DNA from: Blastocatellia bacterium
GTDB lineage: Bacteria > Acidobacteriota > Blastocatellia > UBA7656
DNA: 64,000 nucleotides
NCBI GenBank assembly: GCA_039648975.1
Contig: JBBWZK010000069.1
Location: 4,428-68,427 of the forward strand
Direction: 5' to 3'
Part shown: in pieces, positions 16,408 through 36,568 of the stretch
Numbering within the stretch: the stretch's first letter is position 1
How the letters are laid out: each line of letters begins with the position of its first letter
The notes under the pieces: model-generated
Seen by the model: the letters and a program-made list of their open reading frames with translations, nothing else
Told to the model about the DNA's origin: nothing
Database searches by the model: none
Translations under genes and position numbers: made by a program

Positions 16408-16410
16408 GGG

Positions 16411-17135: not shown

Positions 17136-17137
17136 TT

Positions 17138-17713
17138 CTAGCTCCTGTAGTAGTCCACGATGACCGCGTTGCCGTTGAGCGCACTCGCAAGCTGCGCCGT
17201 GTTGCCGCTGATGTTAGTCGCATCAAAAGCAACAGTCGGAGCGGTGCCTTCCTTCACGCCGTTGAGGAACGCAGCGAGGACGGTGTTGCGACTCAGCCTG
17301 TGACCTAGCCCTAGCTTCGAGCCAAAGCCGATGGCTGTCGTCGCGCCCGTGCCGTCATGTGCGGGAATCGTGATACTGGTTACGGTTTTGAACGCCTTGC
17401 TGCCGGTAACGGTGCCAGCGGTGTCGACCGTGAACGCGGGCAGGGTTTCGCTAATGCTGTGGCCCTCTGCGTCGGTGCCTGTGACCACAACCTGAATCGC
17501 TTTAATGTCCGTGTTTGTGCCGCCAGCCGTAGCCGTGATGTTACGAGGCACATCGGGATTCGTGATTGCAGTCGTGATTACCTGCTGTGAGCCATTATCC
17601 GTAACCGCCGCATGGACACCCGTAGTAGAAGCAGCCGCAGGACTGCCGACCGCAACGCTGAAAACATCAGCGCCAGCACCCGCAATGATGTTGCCGCCTT
17701 CAATTACTGCCAT
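17138..17713 (-). CDS. Putative capsid decoration / accessory head protein
   Basis: The ATG at 17711-17713 follows AAGGAG. It is a Gly/Thr/Ala-rich beta-type sequence directly downstream of the capsid gene. Confidence 0.4.
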   Translation of the reverse strand: MAVIEGGNIIAGAGADVFSVAVGSPAAASTTGVHAAVTDNGSQQVITTAITNPDVPRNITATAGGTNTDIKAIQVVVTGTDAEGHSISETLPAFTVDTAGTVTGSKAFKTVTSITIPAHDGTGATTAIGFGSKLGLGHRLSRNTVLAAFLNGVKEGTAPTVAFDATNISGNTAQLASALNGNAVIVDYYRS

Positions 17714-17783
17714 ATCTTTCTCCTTAAAAAGCAAAGTCGGGCATAGCCGAAGCCATGCCCGACGTAGCCACGATTACAGTGGA

Positions 17784-19031: not shown

Positions 19032-19047
19032 AATTGCTCCTCTTCTT

Positions 19048-19911: not shown

Positions 19912-19948
19912 CAGCCAAACTCCAGTCTGCCTTTGGTTGTTAAGTTGA

Positions 19949-20578
19949 TTACTCTTCGGAAACGGAGGCTGTGGGGCGTTTGCGATACTCTATTGAGCAA
20001 CGACAACGGGCCATGCACTCGCGCCCGCCAATCGGTGTTAGCGTGCCGAGCGGAACCCATCCTGCCGCCGCTTCAGCCGGGCAGTCGCCACAATGATTCG
20101 CGCCGTCATCAAGGATGCTGCGTTCTTCTTCAAAGCCTGCGTCTGCTTTCTCGCCGCGTTTGACGTATTCGTATGTGCCGACACCCGCATCGGCGTATAG
20201 CTCGGCGCGAGTCTTGAGCGTGCCGTCCTTTTGCTGTATGCCTGTGTCGATGTCGATTGTGAACTTGACCAGATAGCGGTCTTGCTCAAGCAACTTGGCA
20301 TTGATGCGGCTGAGAGTATTCTGCGATATGTGGTTAAGACCACCCGCAGCTATCAGGCTCACGCCTGTATGCATGGCTCGCAATCGGCTTGTGATTTTCT
20401 GTTTCCACTCAGGGCCATCTATCTCACCGCCGATTAGCTCTTCGGCTATTTGCCCTAAATCGTCTTTGGTGTCGTCTACCGCAGAGTCAATCCACTCGCG
20501 TACAACGCTGTCGGGTACAGGATTGCCCTTCGCATCAACATACTGCCGATTCGCCTTGTCCCATGTGTACTTAGGCAT
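19949..20578 (-). CDS. Minor head (MuF/gp7-position) protein with a Cys-rich C-terminus
   Basis: Lies between the portal and protease genes. The C-terminus is HCGDC..GW..IGGRECMARCRCSIEY. Confidence 0.45.
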   Translation of the reverse strand: MPKYTWDKANRQYVDAKGNPVPDSVVREWIDSAVDDTKDDLGQIAEELIGGEIDGPEWKQKITSRLRAMHTGVSLIAAGGLNHISQNTLSRINAKLLEQDRYLVKFTIDIDTGIQQKDGTLKTRAELYADAGVGTYEYVKRGEKADAGFEEERSILDDGANHCGDCPAEAAAGWVPLGTLTPIGGRECMARCRCSIEYRKRPTASVSEE

Positions 20579-21983
20579 GGAGCGTGTCAGCGTTTACGAG
20601 GTCACGGGCAAGCGCGGGAGCGTGTTCGCGCCACCATGCCGCGCCTTCATCAAGATTCAACTCGCCCGCCAGCCCTTTATGCTCAATGCCCTTGCCCGCA
20701 CTCACATCAGCAAGCGGGTTCAGCCCGTTGTCGTGTGGGTTCGGTGCGCTCGCCGTGATGTAAACCTCATCGTCGGGCGTAACAGGTAGGCCGACCGCTG
20801 CGCGAGCTTCTGAGCGCTTAATCCAACCGCCCTTAACGCCGATGGTGAGCCGTTGGTAAAGCGCCGTCTGGTCTTCCTGTAGCACTCTCACTTGAGACAG
20901 GTCATGCGATACCCGCATGGTGCCGTCGCTTGTGAAGTCGGGCAGGAGTTGCAGGGTTAGCTCTTCCTCGAAGTGACGCAGCAACGGCACGACATAGCTC
21001 TCGTATGCCGCCTCTCGTGCTTCTTTGAAGTTGGCAAAGGTTGAACGCTGAAGCCCCGCACCGAGGCCGAGAACGATTGCGGGAATGCCAAGTACAGCCG
21101 ATACCCGCTCCTCGTTAATCATTCGAGCCGCTTTCAAGTTCAGGGACTCAGGGTTAAAGCTGAGTTGCTTAACTTCAATACCGCCGCTGGCAACAATCGG
21201 CTCGCCTCTGTTATCGCCTGATGTCTGTCGTTTGATTGCTTCCTTGAGGCTTTCAGCGTCGATGTCCGCGCCGTCCTTGCTGGTCACGATATAAGGCGGG
21301 ACGCCCGAATTGACCAACAATGCAGCCGAGAAGTTTGCAGCCTCGTTGTCGCTGAATATCTCGCGGAACAGCGAGCGCATCGGACTCATGCCGCGTCGGG
21401 TGAGCGGGTTCATGCCGTCCGCAATATGAACTATCTCGGAAGGCTCGAAGCGTTGCGGTATGCCATCAACGAAGTACTCGTAATAGCTGATGAACTGTGA
21501 GCCGTCGCCCGGCCAGCGCGGTCGTACCATCCAGTGAGGCAAGTAATAAAGCTCAACAGGCTTGCCTGCGCCATTGCGCCTCTTGAGAAAGAAGGCGTTG
21601 CCATCCGTCACCCACGAAAGCGCAAAACACTTGAGTAGCGTCGAGCCTGAGTGATAAGGATTCGGGCGTTTGAAGAGTTGAACGAGTGGGTGGTTAGGAA
21701 CAACCTCGTCTTTGCCCTTGCGATTCGTGACAACTGTTAGCGGCGACTCCGGCAAAGTGTTGCCGACCCATCGAACCGCGCTCATCACGATTGAGTTGCG
21801 GGTTACATCTCCAACCTCTGCCTCGTAATCGATTCGGCTGCGTGAGAGAATCGTTGGCAGTAGTCCGTCAAGGAGATGCCAGTTCGCGCCGAAGTAACGA
21901 TTACCTCCACTGCCGCCGAACCCCGTAAACAGCCCCTTGATGGACGCGCCGATTCTTTGTAGTAGCGTTTTATTCTCTCGCAT
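20571..21983 (-). CDS. Portal protein (HK97 family)
   Basis: 470 aa, directly after terL with a 1-nt overlap. Typical portal core segments are present (..NPLTRRGMSPMRSLFREIFSDNEAANFSAALLVNSG..). Confidence 0.85.
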   Translation of the reverse strand: MRENKTLLQRIGASIKGLFTGFGGSGGNRYFGANWHLLDGLLPTILSRSRIDYEAEVGDVTRNSIVMSAVRWVGNTLPESPLTVVTNRKGKDEVVPNHPLVQLFKRPNPYHSGSTLLKCFALSWVTDGNAFFLKRRNGAGKPVELYYLPHWMVRPRWPGDGSQFISYYEYFVDGIPQRFEPSEIVHIADGMNPLTRRGMSPMRSLFREIFSDNEAANFSAALLVNSGVPPYIVTSKDGADIDAESLKEAIKRQTSGDNRGEPIVASGGIEVKQLSFNPESLNLKAARMINEERVSAVLGIPAIVLGLGAGLQRSTFANFKEAREAAYESYVVPLLRHFEEELTLQLLPDFTSDGTMRVSHDLSQVRVLQEDQTALYQRLTIGVKGGWIKRSEARAAVGLPVTPDDEVYITASAPNPHDNGLNPLADVSAGKGIEHKGLAGELNLDEGAAWWREHAPALARDLVNADTLHA

Positions 21984-23278
21984 TATGAAAACGTGATGAC
22001 TCCGCGCCCGCTCAGTTCCGAGAGCGCATACACAACCGCATCAACCTCGTCGTCGTTCTCGGTTGCGACAGGAAAGCGTGTGAGTTGGTCTTCGAGTGAA
22101 GCGAACACGCCAACGTGATGCACCCGCCCTTGCTCGTATAGTGCTGCCGCAGGCTCAGCGCGTACTGTCTTGCCCCTTGAGGCATGAACTGTCTTGATTG
22201 GTGCTGTGCGGCGTATGGTTCGCAGCGTGTGCTCGACCATCTCGCCGCCGTTGTTGCGTTCAGCTATCAGTCGGTCAGCCTTGAACTTGTCGAACAGGTC
22301 GAGGGCGCGTTTCGCCCATGCTTGCGGGGATAGCTTCACACCCTCGCTGTGCAGCAAATAGAACTGGTCGTCGTTACCTTTGCCAGCGACCGCAATACCT
22401 GTGAAATCTGAATCCTCGCCATGCGTTGTCGCGGGGTCTATTGCGACCACGACGCGCTGTAGACTTTCTGGCGCTTCATCAACGCGGTTATTCGCAATCC
22501 AATCAAACTTCCAAAGTGCGCCGGGCACATCGAGCAGGAGCTCGCCTTCAATCTCTTGCCGACCGAGCCGTGTGCCTTCGTATGCGCCTACAACCGTGTC
22601 GATAAAGTTGGCAGCGAGGTTTAATTGATTCTCGTAGGTGCTGCCCTTTGTGATAGCAACCGAGTTATCTTTCTCGGCTTTCTGGACTAGCTCACGGATG
22701 AGCTTTACAGGCTTTGGGGTAGTGGTTGCGATAACCTGCGGGTGTGCGCCGAGGCGCAAACCGAGCAGCAGCATGTCCCATGCTTCCGGTCGGTTCCATG
22801 CCGCAATCTCATCAGCCCATCCCGCATCGTGTTGCGGGCCGCGCAACAGGTCAGGCTCGTCGGCTGAGTAGCAAGTGGCGATTGCCCCGTTCGGCCAGGT
22901 CAACAACCTCTTGCTCGGCTCGTAAACAGGCTTACTATCTTGCGGGCAACAGGCGAGGAGGCCCGACTCACCGCGCACCATAACGTCGCGCACGTCTGCG
23001 GCTGTCCTGCCTACAAGTGCGATGCGTTTGGCAGTACCCGATTCAACCTTTGAACGAACCCACTCGGCACCCGTTCGAGTCTTGCCGAATCCGCGCCCGG
23101 CCATGATTAGCCAGATGAACCATGCGCCATCGGGCGGTAGTTGTTTCTCGCGCGCCCAAAAAGGCCAGCGAAACCTAAGCCTCGCTTTGTCCTGAATCGT
23201 CAGGCTCGCTAGAAACTGGCTGCGCTGTGATTCGGGTAGCAAGAGCAGCCATTCGGCTGTCAAAGTCTGAGGCTGCAT
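21983..23278 (-). CDS. terL: Terminase large subunit
   Basis: Walker A is MAGRGFGKTRTGAEWV, as in the GTA/HK97-like terminase clade. There is a C-terminal RNase-H-like nuclease region. Confidence 0.9.
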   Translation of the reverse strand: MQPQTLTAEWLLLLPESQRSQFLASLTIQDKARLRFRWPFWAREKQLPPDGAWFIWLIMAGRGFGKTRTGAEWVRSKVESGTAKRIALVGRTAADVRDVMVRGESGLLACCPQDSKPVYEPSKRLLTWPNGAIATCYSADEPDLLRGPQHDAGWADEIAAWNRPEAWDMLLLGLRLGAHPQVIATTTPKPVKLIRELVQKAEKDNSVAITKGSTYENQLNLAANFIDTVVGAYEGTRLGRQEIEGELLLDVPGALWKFDWIANNRVDEAPESLQRVVVAIDPATTHGEDSDFTGIAVAGKGNDDQFYLLHSEGVKLSPQAWAKRALDLFDKFKADRLIAERNNGGEMVEHTLRTIRRTAPIKTVHASRGKTVRAEPAAALYEQGRVHHVGVFASLEDQLTRFPVATENDDEVDAVVYALSELSGRGVITFS

Positions 23279-23810
23279 TTGTAATTTCGATTGCGCCGCC
23301 GTCTGCGCCGGTTATCTCTTGGCGGGTAGTCTCAACAGGCATACCTGCGGATGTGCGGTATAGCTTGGCGACCGTCTCAGCCATGCGGGTCACATCGCGC
23401 ACGCTCCAATTCAACGGCTTGATTGTCATTTGCTGACCGTGTTCGTTGGTGTGCTCGACTTGGTAAACCGGGAACTCAAGCATCTGCGCGAGCTTGCTGT
23501 GGATGCGCTCGGCCAGTTTCCACTCTTCGTTGCGTAACTCTTCTCGGCGCTTCGCCCACTTCTCGGCTTCTACCTGTGCGGCTTTTTCGCGGGCTTTCTC
23601 TTGTAGTTCGTTCTGGTGGTCATCGTAGGCTTGTGCGCGGTTTACCCAGTCAAACGTTCTCGACCAACGGTCACAAATCGTTTTACTCTTGCCTAACTTC
23701 TGACTAACCGCCTCAAGCGTGCGTTTCGCGCCCATCTCGAAGTAGCATTTAGCTGCCTCGTAAGCTTTGGCGCTTTCGTTTGTTTGACGTAGCCAACTCT
23801 TGATAGCCAT
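23175..23810 (-). CDS. terS: Terminase small subunit (HTH)
   Basis: It is upstream of and overlaps terL. The N-terminus KAYEAAKCYFEMGAKRTLEAVSQKLGKSKTICDRWSRTFDWVNR is HTH-like. The start is the ATG at 23808-23810; a longer GTG-initiated ORF reaches 23873. Confidence 0.6.
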   Translation of the reverse strand: MAIKSWLRQTNESAKAYEAAKCYFEMGAKRTLEAVSQKLGKSKTICDRWSRTFDWVNRAQAYDDHQNELQEKAREKAAQVEAEKWAKRREELRNEEWKLAERIHSKLAQMLEFPVYQVEHTNEHGQQMTIKPLNWSVRDVTRMAETVAKLYRTSAGMPVETTRQEITGADGGAIEITNAASDFDSRMAALATRITAQPVSSEPDDSGQSEA

Positions 23811-23842
23811 AAAAAAAGGCGGAGCCAATTGCTCGGCTCCGC
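23811..23842 (-). terminator. Intrinsic terminator abutting the terS start
   Basis: 8-bp stem GCGGAGCC (23819-23826) / GGCTCCGC (23835-23842). On the minus strand T7 (23811-23817) follows, then the terS ATG. Confidence 0.5.
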
Positions 23843-23959
23843 TTCTAGGAGATGAGAGGAAGGTAATGGACACCGCACACGAAAAAAGGCGGGCACGGAT
23901 GCGCCTCTCGCCGTTTCAGCCCCCTCAAAAACAACGGCAAGAATCCATGCCCATAAAAC

Positions 23960-24160
23960 TCAATAGCCGCGATAGTCGCTGTTCATATAGGTAGCGACAA
24001 TTTCATCCTGCTCGCGGAGCCAGCGTTTGAACGCAGGGTCGTTCTGCACCTGAGTCTGAATGAACTCGACGCTCTTCCAGCCTCGCACCTTGTCTGTCTG
24101 CTTTCTCTTTGCTTTTGCAAGCGACTGCACATCCGCCGTCGCTTTGTCTTTTCGTCGCAT
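23960..24160 (-). CDS. Small basic phage protein, unknown function
   Basis: 66-aa ORF upstream of the packaging genes. Confidence 0.35.
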   Translation of the reverse strand: MRRKDKATADVQSLAKAKRKQTDKVRGWKSVEFIQTQVQNDPAFKRWLREQDEIVATYMNSDYRGY

Positions 24161-24178
24161 GGTGAAGCCGCACGGGAC

Positions 24179-24532
24179 TCAGCCAGCTTTCTCTAAAAGT
24201 TTTGCCTGATGCCAGCGCAATAGCATCTCCGCATAGTTGTCGGTGCTGTCATTGCCCGCACCAAAGCGAAAGTACTCAACATCACATGCGGGTATCGGTG
24301 AAGGCGCATAGCTAAACACTCTGCGCATCATCACGCCGAACAAAGCCCGCAGCCCGAAAGAGGGCGAGGTCTGTTCAAGCGAACGTAGCTGTGTGCGATT
24401 CGTTTCAGGGTCGAGCGTGAGCAAGTATTGCTTGCGTTCCTGTTCGGCAAGTTGCCGCTGATGCTCAAGGACATAAAGTTTCTTCTTGCGCGCAGCTTCG
24501 CGGCGAGCCTTCGGCTTGCGGTGTCGTGCCAT
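24179..24532 (-). CDS. Phage protein, unknown function
   Basis: 117-aa ORF co-oriented with the late operon. Confidence 0.35.
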   Translation of the reverse strand: MARHRKPKARREAARKKKLYVLEHQRQLAEQERKQYLLTLDPETNRTQLRSLEQTSPSFGLRALFGVMMRRVFSYAPSPIPACDVEYFRFGAGNDSTDNYAEMLLRWHQAKLLEKAG

Positions 24533-24947
24533 TTATCTCCTCGGTGCTTTCAGGCACACGAATCCTGTCGATGATTTTTGGGGTTTCACGGTGCCCGCGT
24601 CTCAACGAGCAATGCCCGGAGACTGCGGATAGTCTTTAGGTAGGTGTGTGAGCGAGAAACCTGAAAGTTTCTATCGGACACGGGGCCAACCATGTCTGTT
24701 CTTTTTATCTGCTACAACCTGTAACTTGCTGACAATTCAGCTTACACATCAAGAAGTAACTCGATTCACAATAAGAGTCAACGGTTTCGAAGCAAAAAAT
24801 ATGCTCGGAATGAAAAAACTGTTTCATACAAGTTACAGACAACTTTGCTTTACATTTTCGTGCGTCTGGACTACTACAAGAATTAAGGCGAGTAGATTTG
24901 GCAGGGTTAAGGGGATACAGGCAGTTTGTTTTGCTTGGCGGGCCGCC

Positions 24948-25253
24948 TCAACTTTTCTTCGACCGCAACACAGACCACCGATAGCCCTGACCAGCGGGCA
25001 GCTTCGCAGGCAGTTCAATAGCATCGTCAACCAGCGCGTCGATGTACACGCCCGCAACACGCCCATATTCCAACAGCACCAGCAAATCAGGCTCGCGCAC
25101 CCCACGCTCGAACGCCGAGATAGAATCCTGAAACAACTCTCCGGTCAGGCCCATTCGGCCAATCAACTCATTCTGTGATAGGCCGAGAGCGGTGCGAACG
25201 TGCAGGAGTTTTTCTGCAAGGCGGTCAGGTTTTCGGCGGGAAGCTCGGCCCAT
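24948..25253 (-). CDS. XRE-family HTH transcriptional regulator (phage repressor-like)
   Basis: LRTALGLSQNELIGRMGLTGELFQDSISAFERGVREP is a classic Cro/CI-type HTH. Confidence 0.8.
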   Translation of the reverse strand: MGRASRRKPDRLAEKLLHVRTALGLSQNELIGRMGLTGELFQDSISAFERGVREPDLLVLLEYGRVAGVYIDALVDDAIELPAKLPAGQGYRWSVLRSKKS

Positions 25254-25302
25254 CAGGAGGCACCCCCTGACGGTAGAAGCTCATCATTTTTTTGCTTGCG
25301 AG

Positions 25303-25320
25303 TAAGGGTATTTACCCTTA
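25303..25320. promoter_or_regulatory. Operator-like palindrome upstream of the XRE gene
   Basis: TAAGGGTA-TT-TACCCTTA, with perfect 8-bp arms. It lies in the divergent region between 25253 and 25461. Confidence 0.4.
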
Positions 25321-25460
25321 GTATGTCGTCGCTATTGTGAATTGCCGGGAACTTTAGTAATTTTAGCTCCCTAGCAGCACTCATCATCAGCGATGCGCCG
25401 CCTGATACATAGGATGGCACTCAAAATAGCAAAGAACGACTCGCCGCGAAAGGAGAACCG

Positions 25461-25940
25461 ATGAATCACGATGCTCCCCCTGTTTCTCAACAGGAAAAGC
25501 CGCCGCTGCCACTCGCCGTACGAGTTTCTGTTCTAATCGGGATAATTGTGGGCGGACTCTACCTCGCATCCTTCCTCGCAGACAAAAAAACTCTACAGCC
25601 TGAATCACAATCTGCCACGCCCCATACCTCGCAACAATCCAACTCAGCCACACCGAAACGCACCAAGTCGGTAGGAGATGAAGTTAAGATTTATGTTGAA
25701 GGGCTGAAGACGATTACGGTCGCGGTTGACGAGGACGCCTATAGTGAGCTGGACAAAGTGTTTCAGGCGAAAGACCAGTATGGGTACGACCATCTGTTAG
25801 CCGAGGGGAGAATCTTTCGTGTGACAAACAATACGAGGGCACTCATCCTTGAAAATGGCTTCTTTAAGTTAAAAGTGCGGATTCTTGAGGGCATCAAGCA
25901 GGGATACGCCGGACTGGTTCCGAGAGAATGGCTCCAGTAG
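25461..25940 (+). CDS. Membrane-anchored protein, unknown function (lysogeny-region moron)
   Basis: One TM helix (VSVLIGIIVGGLYLASFL) plus a ~90-aa globular domain. It is divergent from the XRE gene. Confidence 0.4.
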   Translation: MNHDAPPVSQQEKPPLPLAVRVSVLIGIIVGGLYLASFLADKKTLQPESQSATPHTSQQSNSATPKRTKSVGDEVKIYVEGLKTITVAVDEDAYSELDKVFQAKDQYGYDHLLAEGRIFRVTNNTRALILENGFFKLKVRILEGIKQGYAGLVPREWLQ

Positions 25941-26072
25941 AGCGGACTTCTACCAGCCCCCTTGTCCTATGCCGCCGCGCCTGTTGTGCCCTGTGACGCG
26001 TTTCTCTGGTTGCGTCCCTGTGCGGCTTACCTGAATCCAGCGAAAGGTTTGTCAGGGCTGATATGGCCGACG

Positions 26073-26113
26073 CTGGTTCAGTGGGTGAACCGCTCTGGTT
26101 CAGTGGGTGAACC
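26073..26113. promoter_or_regulatory. Two tandem GGTTCA-N5-TGAACC palindromes, 22-bp period
   Basis: CTGGTTCAGTGGGTGAACC occurs at 26073-26091 and again at 26095-26113. Confidence 0.4.
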
Positions 26114-26891
26114 ACCGTCGATATTAGGCCGATTTTCAGAGATTTTAGTACCTATCTGCGGTCGGCGGTCGATTTTATCTCCCCGCGCCGCTCGCGTCCC
26201 TCTCCTTCTCAGTAATGTAGGTAGCATATCTCTTTAGAAAGGACAGACAGGGGCCATTCCCTGCTGATACATTAAATAATGTGCAGGGTTCCAAAGCTAT
26301 TCGTGGAGTGAATTGATGACGGCTGTTATCGTTTAGTTAGCAGAAACGAGCTTATGCTCAGATTTATTAAGCTGATAAAATCGACCGACGACTTATCAGG
26401 TATCAGTTAAGGACTCGGACGTAGACCCCATTGCCGCATCAACTAGCGACCCGTTGCCGAGGAAAAACACTCAAGCGAACTTGAGCCAAAAATCTAATTT
26501 CACCGTTTCTCAAAGAGCCTGCTGAAACTCTGCCTAACACCGAGAGGGCTTGTCTCTCGTAGCCTTGCCGGATAAACCGGCTACGCGCCCGTTTTTTCGC
26601 GGAGAACGTTTGCGTGATTACCACAACCGCTTGCAGGCCGAACCTGCAAAAGTTCACTCTTCCAATGCCGACAGGCGATGCCTGCCACAAAACACACTCC
26701 GCGCCAAGCAGCCGCGAACGGCCCGCCTGTCGCTATCACTACCTCATGGGATAATCCAACCTGAGAGTAAAATTACATTCGACACCAGAGTAACTCGAAT
26801 AAATAGAATGTCAATAATTGTGGTCGACTTTCCGTTTCAGTTATGAAACACTTTTTTTGATGGGCGCAGTCTCCCGCGCCCATGCTGATAA

Positions 26892-27143
26892 TTAAACCGT
26901 CGCCGCTGCTATCGGCAGCCACACAACCTCCGCTCGGTGCGAGTACTTAATCGCAACGAGCCACGCATTCAAGAAATCGCCCGCGTAACCGCGCACCCTC
27001 AACAGGCCATCGCCGTTTGCGCTCAGAGCTTCAGCCGGTACGACCGCAGTCAAGCCTGCGCCCGCCGTCGCTACGTAATCAAAGTCACCATCTAGCATGA
27101 GTAGGAAATCATCGTCGTCTTGTTGGACTCGAACTTTCAACAT
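26892..27143 (-). CDS. Small acidic protein, unknown function
   Basis: The ATG at 27141-27143 begins MLKVRVQQDDDDFLLMLDG... The track ORF extends to 27200. Confidence 0.35.
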   Translation of the reverse strand: MLKVRVQQDDDDFLLMLDGDFDYVATAGAGLTAVVPAEALSANGDGLLRVRGYAGDFLNAWLVAIKYSHRAEVVWLPIAAATV

Positions 27144-27262
27144 AGTTGTCACCTTTCTCTTCTTCGTTTGTAACTGTCTGCACACAGCCATCGTTTTCAA
27201 GAATGCGGGTAGCTATTAACCGACAGAGCTTCGCCCACGCCGCCGATTGTTCGGGGGGAACC

Positions 27263-27469
27263 TCAAGCGCACCCATCGCTCGCCTCCTGCACAGGCGGCA
27301 ACTTCACGCCGAGTGCGCTTTCTAATCTTTGGATTTCGTCGGGACGGGGTATCCTGCGGGAGTTCTCGATACGGCTCAGGCGGGTTTCTTCAACTCCTGC
27401 CTTCGTCGCCAATTCGAATAGTTTCAGGCCCGCTCTGATTCGGGCGATACGCAACTCTAAACCAAACAC
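27263..27469 (-). CDS. XRE/Cro-like HTH regulator
   Basis: IRAGLKLFELATKAGVEETRLSRIENSRRIP is an HTH. The GTG start is preceded by GGAGG (27477-27481). Confidence 0.7.
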   Translation of the reverse strand: MFGLELRIARIRAGLKLFELATKAGVEETRLSRIENSRRIPRPDEIQRLESALGVKLPPVQEASDGCA

Positions 27470-27482
27470 ACGAACACCTCCA

Positions 27483-27497
27483 AAGGGATAATCCCTT
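27483..27497. promoter_or_regulatory. Operator-like palindrome just upstream of the Cro-like gene SD
   Basis: AAGGGAT-A-ATCCCTT. It shares the AAGGG...CCCTT half-sites with the palindrome at 25303-25320. Confidence 0.4.
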
Positions 27498-27874
27498 CAA
27501 AAGCCTGCCGGTTCCTTTTCGGTTTGGTTTAACTGCCTTACAATGTTGAGATTACTATAACAGCAATTTGATGTCAATAGTTAAACTAAGTAAATAAAGC
27601 GGTTATGTATACTACTTGTGGAATACTTAGTAGGTGTGGCTTAGGATAAGTTGCGCCAACAGCGCGGGATACAGGGAATCTATAACTCCTTTTCGGCAGT
27701 AAATTTTTTTTTGCAGGCGGGTAGGGTTTTGGTCAAAAAAACAGAGTCGGCGTTAAGCTGTCGGGACGTTGCCAAACTTACTCCTTTGAAGTATTAGTAT
27801 AAAGTACATAATCGCAACGGCACTCATTCAAGAAGCAAACTAGCCGAATAGGACAAGGGAGGTTAAAGCGTCCA

Positions 27875-30800
27875 ATGCGTATTGACGAATCAACCCGCAA
27901 CACACTTAGCCAGTACCTAACGGATATTCGAAGCCTGCCGAACGAGTCCGCGAAAACAAACAGGTTCTCCGCGCTCGTTGCCACGTTGTTTCCCGGCACC
28001 TCTGCGTCCACTGAGTTAGCAGCAGGGGTCGAGAAGATGATTCGCATCGATACGTTGGACGGTGAGAAGCGAGGGCGGATGGATGCCTATTACGGCAATG
28101 CAATCGTGGAGTTTGAAAGGTCTTTGAAGGCTACTGGGGCGGAAGCTGAAAGGCAGTTGAGGGAGTATACGGCGGGCGTTTGGAAAAAGAGCAAGGAGAG
28201 AAGACAAATCCTGTGTGTAGCTTCTGACGGTATCGTGTGGAAAACTTATCGGCCATCGCTCAAGGAAGGAACGAAGGCGAAAGTCACACCTGAAGACGTT
28301 GTATTGGAGTCACTGAGAACTATTGAAGTCACCGAGCAAACGCTTGATGACTTTTATATGTGGCTGACCAGTTTTCTTTTCCGGCCTTCTCGCATCGCGC
28401 CGACCGCAAGTCAATTCCAGTTTGACTTCGGGGCAACCAGTCCGGCCTTTGTCGATGCGATGGAAACATTAAGCCGAGCATGGGAAGCCGTTAGTAAAGA
28501 GTCCGAGCCGCAGTTGATGTACAACACATGGCAGAGGTATTTGACGGTCACATACGGCCAACTCGGCAAGGCTGAAACTCAAGAACTCCACAAGCTGTTT
28601 TTGAAGCATACCTATCTCGCAAGCGTTGCCAAACTGCTGATATGGGCATCCCTCTCGCGTGGCAGAACCGAAACCAGCCTTCGTGAAGTTGCGAAGGAGA
28701 TTCTGTCGGGCCAATATTTTCAAGCTCGAAAGATTGCCAATCTCGTTGAGGACGATTTCTTTCAGTGGGTGAGGCGGCCAAAAGCTGAAGCCATCGTTTC
28801 GGAAGTATGGGAGCGAATCCTCGACCAGATGACCACTTATGATTTGCCGCTTCTCAATCAAGATGTTCTGAGGGGCGTGTATCAAGAGCTAGTCGACCCG
28901 AAAGACCGTCATGAATTAGGCGAGTACTATACGCCCGAATGGTTATGCGAAAGGGTTGTCGATGAACTACTACCTTCAAGCGGGTTCGTGAGCGTTCTCG
29001 ACCCCACATGCGGCTCAGGCAGTTTTCTACACGCTGTCATTGCTCATCAATTAAATGCAAATCAGGAAGGCGGAGATGCAACACGCCTGCGCCAAATACT
29101 CGAAAACGTAGCGGGGATAGATATTCATCCACTGGCCGTCACTATAGCGAAGGCTACTTATTTGCTCGCGGTGCGCTCGCTGTTGAAGGCAACGAAGCGG
29201 CCCATTCAAGTCCCTGTCTACCTTGCCGATTCGCTCTTTCTACCAAGAGAGGTGTCACAAATGAGTTTTGGCGAAGTGCCAGGCTATGAGATACGCTTCG
29301 GCAAAGATAGCAAGGTGTCCATCCCTGAAGAACTTGTCCAAACGCCCGAATTGTTTGACCCCGCGATTGCGGCATCGGCGCAGATTGCCCTCGACCATGC
29401 AAAGACCAATAAGGAGAGCGAGAAATCACTTCAGGCATATCTAAAGCAGGCCGTGCCCGAACTCATCGAGCATAAAGACTCGGATGCGATGGTTACTGCG
29501 CTTTGGTCTTTCACAAAGGAGTTGAGCAGCCTGATAAAGAAGAAAGAGGACACCATTTGGGCCTTCATCGTGAGGAACAGCTACCGGCCAGCGATGTTCC
29601 GAGAAAGATTCGACTATATAGTTGGCAACCCTCCGTGGCTCTCATACAGATACATTTCTGACCCTGAGTATCAAGCCGAGGTAAAGAAGCGGGCCATTGA
29701 CGATTATGGCATAGCTCCTAATTCTCGAAAGCTATTCACGCAAATGGAGCTTGCTACAATCTTCTTAGCTCACACTCTTTCAACATTCGGGCGGAAGGAT
29801 GCTCACCTCGCATTTGTATTGCCTAGAAGCGTGGTGTCGGCTGACCAGCATGAGAATTTACGAGTACGCAGCTATAAAGCGCCGATAGAACTGTATGAAC
29901 TTTGGGATATGGTTGATGTATATGAAATATTCAAGGTTCCGACGTGCGTCCTATTCGCTAAGAAGATAGATAAGCCCGTCGTACCTTCCACCAACTATTC
30001 TCTTCCTGCAATCGAATGGAGCGGCGACTTACCATCCCGCGATGTGGCATGGAGTGAGGCGCAGAACTATTTAACAAGTGAAAAAGCCACAGCGAAGATT
30101 ATCTATCTAGGAGAGCGCACCGCCCTTTCCACGAAGCCCGGTAGAACCAAGCCCAACTCTCCCAGTTTGTACTCAAAGGATTTTCATCAGGGAGCTACCA
30201 TTGTCCCGCGTAGTGTCTACTTCGTTCAGGCCGAGGGGCTTGAGGGCGAAGCGGACGCCGATAGTCTCTACTGGGCAGAAACCGAGCCTGAGCAAGCTAA
30301 GGAGGCAAAGGAGCCGTACAAAGATGTTTATCTCAAGGGACACGTTGAGGGACGCTTTTTGTTTTCGACGGCTCTATCTAGGCACGTCCTACCGTTCGTA
30401 TTCTTAGAGCCTGCCGTCGTGGTTCTACCTGTCGAAGAAAATAAAGGAAAATTAGAGTTAAAGACTGCCGACCAGTTAAGAGAGGAGGGATACAGAGAAT
30501 TCTCGTCTTGGATGGAGCAAGCTGAGACAATATGGAACTCAAAGCGCGGAGATAAAGCCGACAAGCAAACCATCTATGAAAGGCTAGATTATGGTAGTGG
30601 ACTGACCATCCAAAAACCTAATGCAAAATACATCGTGCTTTACAACGCCGCAGGAACTAACATCTCGGCAACTCGCGTGTTCCGAAAGGACTTGGTGCTT
30701 CCTTTTATTATCGAGCATAAATTGTATTGGTGTGCTTGTGCGAACGCTGACGAGGCAGATTACTTAACGGCAATTCTGAACGCTGAGTATGTTAACGATT

Positions 30801-31066
30801 TAATCAAACCCTTCCAGTCTCATGGACTAATGGGCGAAAGGGATATTGAGAAGAAGGTTCTAGACCTTCCCATCCCTCCGTTTAACCCTAATAAGTCAGA
30901 GCACAATGACATTGTTGAATTAGGGAAACGGGCGCGACTCGAAGCGGCAGCATTCGTAAAGAAAGTCTCTTTTCCAAAATCGCTCGGCAGACGCCGCGCT
31001 ATGGTCAGAGAGGCTATTGTGGACACGCTACAGGAAATCGACATGGCTGTAAAAAAACTGTTTTGA
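27875..31066 (+). CDS. MmeI/PglX-like single-chain N6-adenine DNA methyltransferase (possible type IIG/IIL enzyme)
   Basis: SAM motif I is VLDPTCGSGSFL (28994-29029) and motif IV is NPPW (29627-29638). The N-terminal block GRMD70AYYGNAIVE79FE81R resembles the MmeI-family D..ExK nuclease motif, with Lys replaced. About 400 aa of TRD-like C-terminus follows. GGGAGG lies upstream of the ATG. Confidence 0.75.
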   Translation: MRIDESTRNTLSQYLTDIRSLPNESAKTNRFSALVATLFPGTSASTELAAGVEKMIRIDTLDGEKRGRMDAYYGNAIVEFERSLKATGAEAERQLREYTAGVWKKSKERRQILCVASDGIVWKTYRPSLKEGTKAKVTPEDVVLESLRTIEVTEQTLDDFYMWLTSFLFRPSRIAPTASQFQFDFGATSPAFVDAMETLSRAWEAVSKESEPQLMYNTWQRYLTVTYGQLGKAETQELHKLFLKHTYLASVAKLLIWASLSRGRTETSLREVAKEILSGQYFQARKIANLVEDDFFQWVRRPKAEAIVSEVWERILDQMTTYDLPLLNQDVLRGVYQELVDPKDRHELGEYYTPEWLCERVVDELLPSSGFVSVLDPTCGSGSFLHAVIAHQLNANQEGGDATRLRQILENVAGIDIHPLAVTIAKATYLLAVRSLLKATKRPIQVPVYLADSLFLPREVSQMSFGEVPGYEIRFGKDSKVSIPEELVQTPELFDPAIAASAQIALDHAKTNKESEKSLQAYLKQAVPELIEHKDSDAMVTALWSFTKELSSLIKKKEDTIWAFIVRNSYRPAMFRERFDYIVGNPPWLSYRYISDPEYQAEVKKRAIDDYGIAPNSRKLFTQMELATIFLAHTLSTFGRKDAHLAFVLPRSVVSADQHENLRVRSYKAPIELYELWDMVDVYEIFKVPTCVLFAKKIDKPVVPSTNYSLPAIEWSGDLPSRDVAWSEAQNYLTSEKATAKIIYLGERTALSTKPGRTKPNSPSLYSKDFHQGATIVPRSVYFVQAEGLEGEADADSLYWAETEPEQAKEAKEPYKDVYLKGHVEGRFLFSTALSRHVLPFVFLEPAVVVLPVEENKGKLELKTADQLREEGYREFSSWMEQAETIWNSKRGDKADKQTIYERLDYGSGLTIQKPNAKYIVLYNAAGTNISATRVFRKDLVLPFIIEHKLYWCACANADEADYLTAILNAEYVNDLIKPFQSHGLMGERDIEKKVLDLPIPPFNPNKSEHNDIVELGKRARLEAAAFVKKVSFPKSLGRRRAMVREAIVDTLQEIDMAVKKLF

Positions 31067-31190
31067 TAGTTGTGTCTTTTTTTTAAGTTAGACAGGCTAG
31101 AGGTTAGAAGCGGAGAAACCTTCCTTGCTTGACAGAGTAACTGCCAGTCAAAATAATGAGGCCGCACGTCATAGGAAGAGGGGAGAGCGT

Positions 31191-32342
31191 GTGAGTCAGC
31201 ATAACCAGATGGACTTATTTGGTCAGCCAATAACTGAAAAAGTCCTATTAGAAAATGACGTTCACTTGCTGGCCCTAACCGAGATTCAGGGTATCGGTTC
31301 TGCGACCGCTCGGTCATTTTTTGAAATGTTTGATGGCGATTTATCGCGGGTTTGGAGCGCGCAGGCAGAAGAGTTATATGAAGGGCTGCGGAAGTCACGG
31401 GCGCAACATCCGATAAATATTGTCAACAAAATACACAAAGACTCTGCGAAGCTAATCGAGTTGGCGCGAGACCGGCTTCGGATGTTCAAGGAGCGAAGGA
31501 AGATTTCGGTCATTTTCCGCGACACCCCCGAATACCCAGTCACGCTCCTTGACCTGCCTAATCCGCCTGCATGGATATTTGTACAGGGCGATTCAAAGCT
31601 CCTACACAACACAAATCTCGTCGCGGTTGTTGGCACTCGCACGCCCACAGAGAACGGAATTGAAGCGGCCAAACGGCTCTCAATTTTACTCGTCACAAAC
31701 GGAGCCTTGATTCTGTCGGGTTTGGCTGAAGGCATAGACGAGGTGGGCCATCGCACAGCCGTCGACCACGGTGTTCCTACCGTCTCGGTGTTAGGTCACG
31801 GCATCGACATCGTATTTCCTCGGTCAACTGCTGCCTTACGGCAACAGATAATCGATGTCGGCGGCGCTGTGGTGACTGAATATCTGCCGAGAGACTCCTA
31901 CAATGCCGAGCGATTCGTTCAGAGAAACCGCATTCAGGCTGCGCTCTCACAAGCGGTTGCGATTGTGGAAGGAAAGACAAAGAGCGGTACGGCGCATACG
32001 GTACGTTTTGCCAAACAACTTAAAAGGCCGTTGTTCGGCGTCCGAATTGGTCGGCCAACTAAGTCACCGAATCAGGAATTGCTCGAAGAGTTGAGTAAAA
32101 ATAATGCGCCCGTGTTTGACCTCGATGCTCTTGATACAAAGGAAGCTCTGACTAAATTTATGCACGAGCATCTTTCTTTGGGCAATAATCTACATGCCCC
32201 TGCCAAGCCGTCGCGGTTCCGCATGATTCTGAAAGAACTCGATAGGATTATTGAATACTATGGCGCGAATGACGCAGACTATCAGTACCTCATTGATGAA
32301 ATAGACCAACGCCGTAAAGGAAGTAAGAAAGATGCCAATTAA
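31191..32342 (+). CDS. DprA/Smf-family (SLOG Rossmann) protein
   Basis: VAVVGTRTPTENG..LSGLAEGIDEVGHRTAV..TVSVLGHGIDIVFP..RFVQRNRIQAAL..VEGKTKSGTAHTVRFA is the DNA_processg_A pattern. An N-terminal HhH/SAM-like segment (LLALTEIQGIGSATARSFF) is present. The start is ambiguous: TTG 31125, GTG 31191 after GGGGAG, or ATG 31209. Confidence 0.8.
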   Translation: MSQHNQMDLFGQPITEKVLLENDVHLLALTEIQGIGSATARSFFEMFDGDLSRVWSAQAEELYEGLRKSRAQHPINIVNKIHKDSAKLIELARDRLRMFKERRKISVIFRDTPEYPVTLLDLPNPPAWIFVQGDSKLLHNTNLVAVVGTRTPTENGIEAAKRLSILLVTNGALILSGLAEGIDEVGHRTAVDHGVPTVSVLGHGIDIVFPRSTAALRQQIIDVGGAVVTEYLPRDSYNAERFVQRNRIQAALSQAVAIVEGKTKSGTAHTVRFAKQLKRPLFGVRIGRPTKSPNQELLEELSKNNAPVFDLDALDTKEALTKFMHEHLSLGNNLHAPAKPSRFRMILKELDRIIEYYGANDADYQYLIDEIDQRRKGSKKDAN

Positions 32343-33486
32343 GGCTGTTATACTCGACCTTGATGGAACGCTCATCGATACCACGGACAATATCGTGGCC
32401 GGTGTTCCACAGATGATTTCGAGTCTTCAACAGAATGGCGTAGCCGTCTATGTTGCGTCCAACAGATTGCCTGCGCCACCAGTGGATTTTAATGGGCTAG
32501 GAATAACTCCGAACGAGTACCTCACGAGGCGCAGAGTTGGCCAACGTAAGGGAACGGGTGCGTTTGTTGATGCGGTTCTAGCAAACCTTAGAATCGAAAG
32601 AAATGAACTCCTATATTTGGGAGATTCCGTCAATGATATGAGAGAGGCTGTTAATAGTAAGGTAGCCTTCTTTCTAGCGGCTTGGTCAAATCCAACGTAT
32701 TCATACGGGCTTGCAATTAAGACGCCTGCGCGATTTGCTCATATCGTGAAGACTTTTTTCTTAAAAGACAAGCTATGGTTTTACCGGATAAACAGTGTCG
32801 ACCACCTTACTCGAACTGTCGCTGTACGAGCACTCCTAGACCCGGACACCGCAATTTCAACTGGCATCAGAGACCTCCTAAAAAGGAATATACTTGGCCC
32901 ACCTATAAAGACCTATTCCCTACCTGCCTATTTATCCTTCCATCTGTTCTCAAGCGTGTATCTTGAGGGCTTACATTTACATGGAAGTCAGGGAGGGCCA
33001 ACCATTTGGTGTATTTATCCGGGGCATGATGGCAGTCAGGGCAGAGTCTTAAGTACTTTCGCACAGGTGGTATCACGATTGTTTCATGACAATTATCAAC
33101 CTTCTTTAATTAATCGGCATACTCCTTCTATAAAAAGTGCATATGCACGATGGCGCGGCGAAACGGTCGATTTTGCTAATCAACTAAAGACAATCAACCT
33201 CTCTCCTGCACTTCGCAGATTCATAGAAGACAGGACTATATTAGTCTTTGACGATTTCACTACTGAGGCTTATAGCTTTGAAGCGGCAAGGAACTTTTTA
33301 TACAACGCAGGTGCGCGTGAAGTAATCAGTATTGCTGTTGGGAAGTATCGGAAACCCTACTATCCTCACTGTCCACATCCCGGCGTTGTTTGGGATAGTT
33401 TCGCTCCCGCCAATCTTGAGGATAGAGATTTTAGAATCGACGCAGTTGAGGAAAACTACGACCTCGATGCGGTCACTCCCTTTTAG
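32332..33486 (+). CDS. HAD-phosphatase :: ComF/GntX-like phosphoribosyltransferase fusion
   Basis: HAD motif I is VILDLDGTLIDT and motif IV is YLGDSVNDMREA. The C-terminus IWCIYPGH..LINRHTPSIKSAYAR..ILVFDDFTTEAYSFEAARNFLYNAGAREVISIAVGKY is a PRTase fold with a non-canonical PRPP loop. It overlaps the DprA-like gene by 11 nt. Confidence 0.65.
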   Translation: MPIKAVILDLDGTLIDTTDNIVAGVPQMISSLQQNGVAVYVASNRLPAPPVDFNGLGITPNEYLTRRRVGQRKGTGAFVDAVLANLRIERNELLYLGDSVNDMREAVNSKVAFFLAAWSNPTYSYGLAIKTPARFAHIVKTFFLKDKLWFYRINSVDHLTRTVAVRALLDPDTAISTGIRDLLKRNILGPPIKTYSLPAYLSFHLFSSVYLEGLHLHGSQGGPTIWCIYPGHDGSQGRVLSTFAQVVSRLFHDNYQPSLINRHTPSIKSAYARWRGETVDFANQLKTINLSPALRRFIEDRTILVFDDFTTEAYSFEAARNFLYNAGAREVISIAVGKYRKPYYPHCPHPGVVWDSFAPANLEDRDFRIDAVEENYDLDAVTPF

Positions 33487-33526
33487 TAGTTGCCAATCCC
33501 TATATTGGGTAGGCCATTAGACGCCT

Positions 33527-33558
33527 AAAAAAAAGGGGCAAGCCCGAAAGCCTACCCC
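33527..33558 (-). terminator. Intrinsic terminator of 33568-34194
   Basis: The minus-strand RNA is GGGGUAGGC-UUUCGG-GCUUGCCCC followed by U8. The G-U pairs make the stem strand-specific. Confidence 0.65.
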
Positions 33559-33567
33559 GCCTGCGCT

Positions 33568-34194
33568 CTACAGCGTGCCGCATGGTCTAGCACCACTCCA
33601 TACCCGTTTGAGGCTGCCGCCCGGCCCCCACTTCGTCTTCCGATACAAGGCGTCCACGTACCAAACGTAACGCACGCCGTCCTGCAAGGTACGGAGGCAC
33701 ACGATGTCTACGCCGCCTAAGTTCTCATAAGGCAGTCTGTCCCTGCCCAAGTTTGCCCACTCGCCGCCCGGCTGGATTCTGTGCCCGTGCAGGCGGTAAA
33801 ACCCGTCGTCCTTAGAGTGCGAGTTCCAGCCAAACTGGAGGCGCTCCTCGTGCAAGGCGTACCCCTCGCGGGAAAGAAACCAGCGCCGCTTGTACTCCTC
33901 AAGGCCCGCCAGTTTCATGTCCATGTCGACTACCACGATGCCGTCGTGCGCCTCCCGCCTGTCCCTGTCGTGGCTGTAGTTGGATACACGCTCCGACGCC
34001 AGAAGCCAGATAGCCCGTGCGTGCGTTTTCACATAGTCGCTCACTGCAATAGCCGCAGCCGTAAAGTCATCCTCGGTTACGGATTCCTTAGCTGCTTTGC
34101 GCCGTGCCGAGCCGCCCGCATGACGAGCGCCGGTCGCCGTAGGCAGATAAATCACGTTGGTCGTTTCTGTGTTCTCGGTTCTTTCGTTCATCAA
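33568..34194 (-). CDS. Hypothetical protein (GC-rich orphan inside the island)
   Basis: 208-aa ORF with its own terminator. I recognise no motif. Confidence 0.4.
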   Translation of the reverse strand: MMNERTENTETTNVIYLPTATGARHAGGSARRKAAKESVTEDDFTAAAIAVSDYVKTHARAIWLLASERVSNYSHDRDRREAHDGIVVVDMDMKLAGLEEYKRRWFLSREGYALHEERLQFGWNSHSKDDGFYRLHGHRIQPGGEWANLGRDRLPYENLGGVDIVCLRTLQDGVRYVWYVDALYRKTKWGPGGSLKRVWSGARPCGTL

Positions 34195-34508
34195 AATTCG
34201 TCTCCTTTTTTCATTGATTTGGGGATAAAACTAGCCCCTCTAAACTCCCGATTTTGAAGTCCCGATTTGCTTTGTTTGTCAATAACAAAATGCAGGCATG
34301 AGCAAAAAAAAGGCAGGCCGTTTAAGCCCGCCCGGTGCCCATTTTAAGCGTTGTATATGTCCTTCTCCGGTGTATTCTAGTGTTTCATCGCAATAGATTT
34401 GATGGACGGAATGCAAGAAATCGCCCGAAAAAAGGAGATTCTATCCTACAAATTCATTGCGATGAAACACAAGGACGCCCTCCATTCTTTCATTTCCCTA
34501 AAAGGTAA

Positions 34509-34537
34509 TTGACATTTCTCTCATTAAATAATATAAC
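34509..34537 (+). promoter_or_regulatory. Sigma70-type promoter for the membrane-protein pair
   Basis: TTGACA (34509-34514), a 17-nt spacer, then TATAAC (34532-34537). It lies about 60 nt upstream of the ATG at 34600. Confidence 0.5.
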
Positions 34538-34599
34538 GTGCGCATCAATTGGATTTCCTTAGCAAAATGAGTTGATAAATTTACACTAGGCGGATATAT

Positions 34600-35295
34600 A
34601 TGAGTGCACCAGATAAACAACCACCGAATCGTTACGAGAATTACAAAAAACGAGCTAAAAAACAGGAAGACTTTACTAGGAAATCCACTATCAACGTGAC
34701 TATATCAATTATAGTGGCGCTATTCGGATTAGTGTTCGCTCTATTTGTCATGTATAAAGATGTTGAATTTCAAAAGCAATACAATTGGAAATTGATAGCG
34801 GTATTGAGTTCTATCGGGTTCATAATTCTTGCTCTAATGGCCTTATATACGCCACGATTACTGAAATTAAATCCAAAAACGGAAAGTCAGACAGAAAAAA
34901 AAGAGGTGGGATTAAGGGCTACAGTTGTCGGCTTATTAGTAGATGATAAACAAAAGAGCTTTTTTACTATATATATATCACTTTTAATAGGTTTCCTTAT
35001 TTATCTAGTTTCGATTTATTTTGCAGGTCAGGCTATAAGCATAGGAACTCTGTCTTTACTAGCAGCTTTCCTATTAGCACTCTTTCTTAACCAATACTTA
35101 TTGAAGTATCGATTGAAATATGGATACTTTGGCACGACCGAACACGAAGCACGCGAGATAATTGACCTAATTCTCAAACATTCTGATAAATCAGACTTCT
35201 CCGATGGGGATGGCCTTAATGAGCTTTTCCCTGAACCAGAGAGAGGGGGGACGGGGCATCGAGTATTAGTTCCATCACTGGACAATGACAGATGA
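34600..35295 (+). CDS. Four-TM membrane protein, unknown function
   Basis: 231 aa with four hydrophobic helices and a Lys-rich N-terminus. It is very AT-rich. Confidence 0.5.
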   Translation: MSAPDKQPPNRYENYKKRAKKQEDFTRKSTINVTISIIVALFGLVFALFVMYKDVEFQKQYNWKLIAVLSSIGFIILALMALYTPRLLKLNPKTESQTEKKEVGLRATVVGLLVDDKQKSFFTIYISLLIGFLIYLVSIYFAGQAISIGTLSLLAAFLLALFLNQYLLKYRLKYGYFGTTEHEAREIIDLILKHSDKSDFSDGDGLNELFPEPERGGTGHRVLVPSLDNDR

Positions 35296-35738
35296 AAAAC
35301 GCTGATGCTGATTCGGTGACAGCCTTTCTTAAACGGGCAACTGATATTTTGTTCGTACAGAACCCAAAAGGAACTGCACTAGGAGTCCTCTTCGGATTTA
35401 TGCTGTATGGACTTTCACTAATGTTTGCTCCTGCTTTGGGAAAAATTAGCTTTATAGACCTTACTAAGGTTTATGCAATCTACTATGTGATTTTCGGAAT
35501 GTTCGTTTTTAACATACGCTCTTACTTTCGGAGACGAGAGTTCAGCCCGGAAATTGAAAAGGCATTTGAGGTAATTAGGGAAGCACGCAAGTCAGGGAAT
35601 ATGGGTGAACTAGAAGCAAAGATAGAATATCGCAAACTGATTCATAAGGTGTTGGAAGAAGTAACAATCAAGGTTCCTCCAACACCTGAACCGCGACGCC
35701 GAAAACCTATTGCCTCCAAATCCCAATCAGGTAGTTAA
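35292..35738 (+). CDS. Two-TM membrane protein with a charged helical tail, unknown function
   Basis: 148 aa, with an ATGA overlap onto the previous gene. It is AT-rich. Confidence 0.5.
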   Translation: MKNADADSVTAFLKRATDILFVQNPKGTALGVLFGFMLYGLSLMFAPALGKISFIDLTKVYAIYYVIFGMFVFNIRSYFRRREFSPEIEKAFEVIREARKSGNMGELEAKIEYRKLIHKVLEEVTIKVPPTPEPRRRKPIASKSQSGS

Positions 35739-35809
35739 TTCACCTTGAAGTCTTTACCCGCTAAACCTTATTTTAATCGGGCTATGCGCTACCAAACTTC
35801 CACCTCGCT

Positions 35810-36568
35810 TCACATCAGTTGGCACAACGCTATTTTCCAGCCGGTCAACCCTTGGGGTACAGCCTTAAAACGACGGTGTTCCGTCCCGAATAGCAAAATG
35901 TTATGCGCCCCCGCCGTAGCCACTTCGATTGCCCGCTTCGCATGCGCCTGGCCGCGCACTTCGCGGAAGTCTTCCGGGTAATCATCGAGGTGCGCCAGCA
36001 AGGTTTCGGCTTCGATCTCAAGCGGCGCGGGCGGCGTCGGGCTATTGATCAACTCGACTACCGCCTTGAGCGAAGCGACCGGATAAACGTTGACGCCCGT
36101 GACGACCGCCGCTTCCTCGGCGTTCTCTTCGGGCAGCAGCAAACGCTTTGCGCCATTAGCCCGCGCTGCTACCGCGATGGATAGCGCGCCCTTGACGGGG
36201 CGCACGCGACCGTCGAGCGATAACTCGCCGACGATCACCGTGTCGGTCAACTCTTCGCATTTGAGGTCGCCGTTCGCGCCGAGAATGCCGACGGCAATCG
36301 GCAGGTCGAAGCTTGAGCCTTCTTTCTTCACATCGGCGGGCGCGAGGTTGACCGTGACGCGATGAATCGGGAAGAAGAAGCCGCAGTTATTGATGGCGGC
36401 GCGAATGCGTTCGCGGCTCTCGCGCACGGCGGCGTCCGGCAGTCCGACCATAGTGAACGACGGCGCGAGGCTGTCGCCCGCCTTCGGCGTCAGGTCAACT
36501 TCAACGTCCATCACGTAGGCATCAATGCCATACACGGCGGCGCTCAAGGTCTTGAATAGCATGGCCAC
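35810..36568 (-). pseudogene. comM: comM/yifB (Mg-chelatase-like competence ATPase), 5' fragment truncated by insertion
   Basis: The N-terminal Lon-like domain and ..DFREVRGQAHAKRAIEVATAGAHNILLFG are intact. The expected GPPGxGKT is replaced by TEHRRFKAV... from nt 35884 downward. A stop follows at 35810. Confidence 0.8.

Follow-up and report, generated by a model that had tools for sequence, protein, structure and literature searches.

A siphovirus-like prophage splits comM in a soil acidobacterium, most probably by means of its own large serine recombinase

The DNA analysed here, referred to as the window, is a stretch of 64,000 nucleotides from a Blastocatellia bacterium (G000:C100:4428-68427), and it contains a comM gene that breaks off before its ATPase motifs; what interrupted this gene, and where the rest of it went, are the questions that the locus raises. 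The host assembly is of the metagenome type, 85% complete and distributed over 486 contigs.

Regarding the retained portion, the comM 5' part lies on the minus strand at 35892..36568 (approximately codons 1-226), and it consists of the ChlI/Lon-like N-domain, a linker and positions 1-30 of the Mg_chelatase AAA+ domain; the Walker A codons would come immediately after the point where it breaks off. It is read within a minus-strand ORF of 252 aa (35810-36568) whose translation ends in ...AIEVATAGAHNILLFGTEHRRFKAVPQGLTGWKIALCQLM*. Pfam assigns residues 35-149 of this ORF to ChlI (PF13541, E 7e-45), while residues 200-229 cover only positions 1-30 of the 207-position Mg_chelatase model; because the match stops at model position 30, the AAA+ domain is cut just before Walker A. 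Residues 1-226 have 91% protein identity with comM of the same genus, after which the protein passes from ...AIEVATAGAHNILLFG into TEHRRFKAVPQGLTGWKIALCQLM*, the latter part being unlike any ComM. Homology to the intact comM of relatives stops at window position 35892, which is the last base of a TTGCT core and falls within the second Leu codon, and nothing comM-like is found beyond it; the frame continues into a phage-encoded tail fused to comM, ..(L)FGTEHRRFKAVPQGLTGWKIALCQLM*, at 35810..35891 on the minus strand. The preliminary description had recognized both the junction and the stop of the read-through frame at 35810-35812, but it considered comM intact up to 35885-35887, and the alignment to relatives places the limit at 35892, 5-7 nt earlier in the gene: the F and G codons past 35892 are phage DNA, with the G agreeing with comM by chance.

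As for the missing portion, the P-loop and the rest of ComM (∼290 aa) are absent from the window, as had been noted, and they were found outside it by a profile search of the whole assembly, in the place foreseen by the preliminary description, upstream of window position 1. Positions 26-200 of the PF01078 model matched C100:2-526 on the minus strand with an E-value of 1.5e-84; this comM 3' half precedes window position 1 by ∼3.9 kb, and its first codons are those of the Walker A region, LLIGPPGSGKT, ...LLIGPPGSGKTMLAKR. The piece at C100:2-521 continues on contig C21, the end of which matched Mg_chelatase_C (PF13335, E 6e-35) in a profile search. C21:22858-22953 is identical to C100:1-96, a 96-base overlap inside the comM 3' half, and because their ends overlap in this way the two contigs are adjacent in the genome. 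When the flanks are joined at the shared TTGCT, an in-frame comM of 516 codons is obtained, with HNILLIGPPGSGKT restored; the ComM/YifB domain set, namely ChlI, the AAA+ Mg_chelatase with Walker A GPPGxGKT, and Mg_chelatase_C, is complete across three in-frame pieces that are 91-93% identical to comM of the same genus.

The uninterrupted comM of relatives, which the preliminary description had suggested as the reference, set the att core to TTGCT and the length of the insert to 39,797 bp. The joined site gave a single unbroken HSP across the junction in three genomes of the same genus (G001, G002 and G003; 82-83% DNA identity), and in 34 of 40 relatives the site is spanned by an open comM frame that is 517 aa or longer. 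A chance pattern is ruled out, since the halves rejoin in frame and the joined site aligns unbroken with the three same-genus genomes. The window viewed alone, where the 3' half is missing, would also agree with a comM truncated by deletion or decay beside unrelated phage DNA, a reading that the preliminary description tied to a 3' half missing beyond the left end or to relatives with the same short gene and no phage DNA beside it. Instead, the 3' half was located at the far end of the phage DNA, where it starts at the very codon at which the 5' half stops, and the empty sites of the relatives are uninterrupted; in addition, the phage-side junction sequences form an inverted repeat and the gene of a large serine recombinase (LSR) adjoins the junction, all of which makes a deletion extremely improbable. 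The other reading to be weighed at this point is that C100 is a chimera, assembled from phage and host reads at a short repeat, as might happen in a metagenome-type assembly fragmented into 486 contigs, and the contig indeed breaks in the comM 3' half, with the 96-bp overlap to C21. However, both junctions are in one 73-kb contig, at the same comM nucleotide and with an in-frame rejoin, and the 5-bp shared core is far below the k-mer of any assembler; moreover, the spacing downstream of a metagenomic LSR with 85% identity is the same, and another LSR, with 61% identity, adjoins a comM half on an independent contig, so a chimera is highly improbable. Given the in-frame rejoin, the unbroken alignment and the 34/40 open comM frames, deletion and chimera are both excluded for practical purposes.

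The insert occupies positions 1..35891 of the window and continues for 3,901 bp past its left edge, to C100:527; this outer stretch encodes an HNH-AP2 protein, a RAMA-domain protein, an XRE/HTH_26 regulator and the LSR. The preliminary description had regarded the DNA next to comM as phage, and the structural genes recognized with PHROGs and Pfam bear this out, identifying a tailed prophage. They are all on the minus strand and start with the terminase large subunit (21983..23278; phrog_979, 2.7e-36, and phrog_2, 8.9e-26), the portal protein (20571..21983; phrog_12, 8e-61), the head maturation protease (19048-19911; phrog_80, 2.7e-52) and the major head protein (17784-19031; phrog_10, 9e-57). 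Head-tail joining and tail genes, including a head decoration-like one, occupy 14209..16902 (PHROGs/Pfam); among them are HK97-gp10-like and gp17-like connector/tail-completion proteins (15279-16045; PHROGs/Pfam) and a 333-aa protein with no family match, presumably the tail tube by its position. The tape measure protein of 1729 aa (8071-13260) is followed by distal tail/virion structural proteins (6278-8068 and 3711-6278), a tail-tip protein with His-x-Asp repeats (2634-3473) and a minor tail protein (2199-2552), each assigned with PHROGs/Pfam. A gene for an XRE-type regulator is found at 27263-27469, and a second regulator adjoins the LSR. A colinear structural module, an integrase and repressor-type regulators are what defines a tailed temperate phage, and all are present here; the LSR and every recognized structural gene read as open frames over their full length. 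Judged by its genes, the insert is an HK97-like siphovirus prophage. Genes for lysis, replication and a recombination directionality factor were not recognized in the prophage with PHROGs or Pfam, which may mean either that it is defective or that these genes are too divergent from those of described phages. Finally, two overlapping genes for small membrane proteins (34600..35738, plus strand), with no significant family match in Pfam or PADLOC, form the stretch with the lowest GC content and the last coding unit before the right junction.

The arms of the prophage carry defense genes on the plus strand. In the left arm, an AbiJ_NTD4/DUF7014 protein (138-1118; Pfam) and an Abi_alpha protein (1134-2015; Pfam) match the PADLOC candidates PDC-S32 and PDC-S47; the Abi_alpha gene keeps its place on the contig that carries P0002, the LSR with 85% identity. 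In the right arm, a type IIG restriction-methyltransferase (27875-31066; Pfam, and PADLOC REase_MTase_IIG, 1.6e-79) is followed by the genes of ShosA (31125-32342; PADLOC, 1.4e-75) and ShosT (32332-33486; PADLOC, 1.9e-34). These two genes are DprA-like and HAD-PRTase genes, respectively, and they constitute a ShosA/ShosT defense pair rather than competence genes; the idea that DprA/ComF-like genes act here as competence mimics was rejected, as they score as ShosA/ShosT and the host has its own dprA, at C21:13926-14549, ∼8 kb further along C21, and its own comEC.

A recombinase had been predicted beside the other junction, and the gene found there encodes an LSR of 559 aa (C100:520-2199, minus strand, outside the window) that adjoins the comM 3' half and ends exactly at attL. 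Its Pfam domains are Resolvase (PF00239, E 1.2e-26, residues 21-167), Recombinase (PF07508, E 2.7e-19, residues 191-306) and Zn_ribbon_recom (PF13408, E 1.2e-12, residues 321-377); the catalytic motif RVST is conserved in YCRVSTAKQ, with the serine at position 28. Residues ∼400-500, beyond the zinc ribbon, in or after which serine integrases have a coiled-coil motif that governs directionality, are, by eye, rich in heptad-like charged repeats. The closest solved structures are those of the SPbeta integrase YokA/SprA (9dxh, E 6e-16) and of the TP901-1 and A118 integrases. At the sequence level, the identity of the protein does not exceed 27% to any integrase among 50,697 GenBank phage records, nor 85% to any metagenomic protein, and no relative of it was found in IMG/VR.

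The preliminary description had also postulated an att-type site within comM; such a site was found, and it is of the serine-integrase kind, with a 5-bp core, a central TT and arms with imperfect dyads. The hybrid site attR (35871..35920, minus strand) joins the comM 5' part to the P' arm, and it comprises the host B half-site (35897-35920, 24 nt with nominal limits), the central TT (35895-35896) and the phage P' half-site (35871-35894, 24 nt with nominal limits), the latter containing GACGGAACACCG. The TTGCT core is at 35892..35896 (minus strand), with its second copy at C100:522-526, outside the window like attL (C100 ∼498-547), where the P arm is joined to comM from LLIGPPGSGKT onward. TTGCT is the only sequence common to both junctions, which share no long direct repeat. 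In the attP reconstructed from the phage-side halves of attL and attR, the arms CGGTGTTTCGTC and GACGGAACACCG are symmetric about ACA-TT-GCT; the best dyad axis falls on TT with 16/24 matches, a score equalled by 2 of 2000 shuffles, and that of attB, determined independently, falls on the same TT with 12/24. Short sites of ∼40-50 bp with imperfect dyads around a 2-bp crossover, and an attP and an attB that share the core only, are the rule for serine integrases. Because both best axes fall there, within the shared core, TT is the likely crossover dinucleotide, any dinucleotide in TTGCT being formally possible. An exact 30-mer across the reconstructed attP had no match in IMG/VR.

Collectively, these data make it very probable that an LSR-mediated prophage insertion splits comM. 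A temperate HK97-like siphovirus of 39,797 bp would have integrated in the chromosomal comM, a gene for a yifB-type Mg-chelatase-like AAA+ helicase, of a soil acidobacterium that appears to be Blastocatellia/Pyrinomonadaceae-like, most likely through site-specific recombination by its own LSR. The enzyme would pair an attP of ∼50 bp with an attB at the codons H-N-I-L-L-I-G, just upstream of Walker A, cut both sites at the central TT, and rejoin them after subunit rotation; the predicted products are attR (window 35871-35920) and attL, with comM split between them. The features of the DNA that argue for this course of events are the split itself, the in-frame rejoin, the empty sites of the relatives, the domain set of the LSR, the att geometry and the phage structural genes. 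The recombination chemistry would be the one established for serine integrases, and by the same analogy excision with the help of a directionality factor is a possibility. While the prophage is resident, comM should be nonfunctional, as established knowledge predicts for a 5' fragment without the whole ATPase domain.

As a separate observation, the LSR frame crosses attP (C100:520-570 / window 35846-35896): in the integrated state its stop, TGA, takes one base from the end of the core and two from host DNA, giving 559 aa, and in the circular phage form the frame would be 15 codons longer, ..QLHC-YSGRNTVVLRLYPKG*, and encode 574 aa.

Regarding the distribution of such elements, the same register recurs in three other elements or remnants joined to comM, with 21 nt from AACAT to the arm motif GAAC(A/G)CC. 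One of these is on the Logan contig SRR25377792_685706 (L039, 4780-5603), where an LSR with 61% identity adjoins the comM 5' half at the same nucleotide register and, like the LSR described above, ends inside host DNA. Since it faces the 5' half and not the 3' half of comM, the sequence places this related element at the same comM site in the opposite orientation. Its central dinucleotide is probably CT in the comM sense, versus TT here. In Bxb1 and phiC31 the central dinucleotide alone fixes the polarity of integration, and if only this dinucleotide determines polarity, the opposite orientation in L039 is expected. The GC of TTGCT was also considered as a palindromic crossover that would account for the orientation in L039, and it was rejected, as the dyad arms are symmetric about TT.

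The second case is that of G004, from the same genus, where the site exists in two versions (L033, G004:C79 4795-5810; L034, G004:C33). One contig is uninterrupted across it, and on the other, comM codons 177-227 run into a P'-like arm of another sequence, GTTATGTCCAGAACGCCGG; an LSR was not found anywhere in this 99%-complete genome. The second version may represent a stranded remnant, a duplicated copy or a mixed population. In the third case, G011, from the same family (L031, G011:C63:108000-121000), a truncated comM 5' copy (3564-4349) breaks off at this site too, where it runs into a P'-like arm; over 788 bp, including 113 bp upstream, it matches the intact copy with 97% identity. Next come a 3-kb remnant with a TPR protein, an attL-like junction (∼7280-7360, 27 comM codons), 2.5 kb of DNA and then an intact comM (9857-11401), an unexplained arrangement for which duplication or re-acquisition of comM are the candidate origins. 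Because the elements and remnants in L039, G004 and G011 share the register, the comM site is, on these sequences, a recurrent target in this bacterial family.

The closest LSR in metagenomic data, P0002, with 85% identity, is encoded on a contig where the genes are in the same order, Abi_alpha, HNH, RAMA, HTH and LSR. Its next gene call begins 29 nt after the LSR stop, a comparison made on coordinates alone, and in G000 the LSR stop and the comM ATG in ..KT-M-LAKR are likewise 29 nt apart, which suggests that the P0002 element is in the same comM position. On another contig (L038), with an LSR of 71% identity, the DNA downstream of the LSR contains neither comM nor a recognizable P' arm. The LSR homologues in the 40 relatives were discarded as instances of the same element: the best are 46-48% identical, and these do not adjoin comM.

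On the host side of the junction, a gene for a 238-aa signal-peptide protein (37017-37733, plus strand), with no Pfam family and a lower local GC of 0.51, is located between comM and ksgA. In G001-G003 ∼1.1 kb is missing at this position, and with it any counterpart of the gene; in G004 a homologue with 63% identity adjoins the P'-like arm of the truncated comM copy, and the gene may be a small mobile or cargo gene tied to comM-targeting elements.

These comparisons also bear on the present state of the prophage. One reading, possible though doubtful, is that it is a stranded remnant that no longer excises, with comM permanently inactivated. The lysis, replication and directionality factor genes that went unrecognized agree with this, as do the decayed remnants at the same site in G004, which has no LSR, and in G011, with its 3 kb between att-like junctions; against it, neither the LSR nor any recognized structural gene is truncated, the two att arms are undamaged and show the 16/24 dyad, and unrecognized genes are to be expected in a phage that lacks close relatives both in IMG/VR and among the GenBank phages. 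The opposite reading is active lysogeny, a reversible switch in which excision without lysis restores comM, as for phi10403S/comK and SPbeta/spsM. Precise excision at TT would indeed restore the intact comM frame, dprA and comEC are retained in the host genome, the known switches are built on elements that bear an LSR, and the intact comM beside the disrupted copy in G011 may indicate selection to keep the gene. Nevertheless, 44-45-mers spanning the attB or attP junction were absent from every contig of the host assembly, and the targeting of competence genes by LSRs is general and equally explained by a conserved, nonessential target sequence, so that active lysogeny is improbable here; to our knowledge, natural transformation is not documented for this lineage. 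A more elaborate form of the switch, in which the 15-aa trimming of the LSR tail upon integration could bias its direction and related LSRs invert the orientation through the central dinucleotide, is quite improbable. The preferred interpretation is still that of a prophage inserted in comM by its LSR.

This target is not new for such enzymes. According to Durrant et al. (2022, PMC10083194), 12.4% of predicted site-specific LSRs target homologues of the Mg-chelatase/ATP-dependent-protease family (ComM/YifB), and LSR targets in general show a strong enrichment for genes of DNA competence. Compared at the gene level with the elements of Durrant et al., the one described here has the same combination of Resolvase, Recombinase and Zn-ribbon domains in the LSR, a short core and an insertion in the ComM/YifB coding sequence, but its host is acidobacterial and its LSR is without a close characterized relative. 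The sr1WO phages of Wolbachia, such as WORiC, integrate into a Mg-chelatase gene by a large serine recombinase (PMC9203015); they too are tailed temperate phages with the LSR at one prophage end and pieces of the Mg-chelatase-like gene on the flanks, and in their case, too, attP is obtained when the non-host portions of attL and attR are put together (PMC9203015). In contrast, the host here belongs to an unrelated phylum, and the prophage has no eukaryotic association module.

The Listeria phages A118 and phi10403S (comK) and Bacillus SPbeta (SprA/YokA, spsM) are further examples of LSR prophages in a protein-coding gene that excision would restore; the target of the Listeria phages is also a competence gene, comK, different from the comM interrupted here. 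For the Listeria comK phages and SPbeta, regulated excision that restores the target gene was demonstrated experimentally, whereas the present element is known from its sequence alone. The AbaR/Tn6022-type islands of Acinetobacter baumannii are large acquired elements that interrupt the same gene family, comM. These islands are Tn7-like transposons, with TniABC-type transposition and target-site duplications; unlike the element described here, they involve neither serine integrases nor phages.

In conclusion, both the comM target and the LSR mechanism are already well catalogued, this gene being the commonest published target of such integrases, and the main value of the finding is in annotation: both ends of a complete-looking acidobacterial prophage are fixed to the nucleotide, the "truncated" comM is explained, and the adjacency of C21 and C100 is established. 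For a phylum poor in genetic tools, the locus also yields a predicted LSR/attP/attB triplet, a candidate integration vector to be tried in Acidobacteriota. Finally, it extends to a further lineage the already known tendency of serine integrases to target ComM/YifB genes, and it offers a natural example of what appear to be related integrases acting at the same site in opposite orientations.
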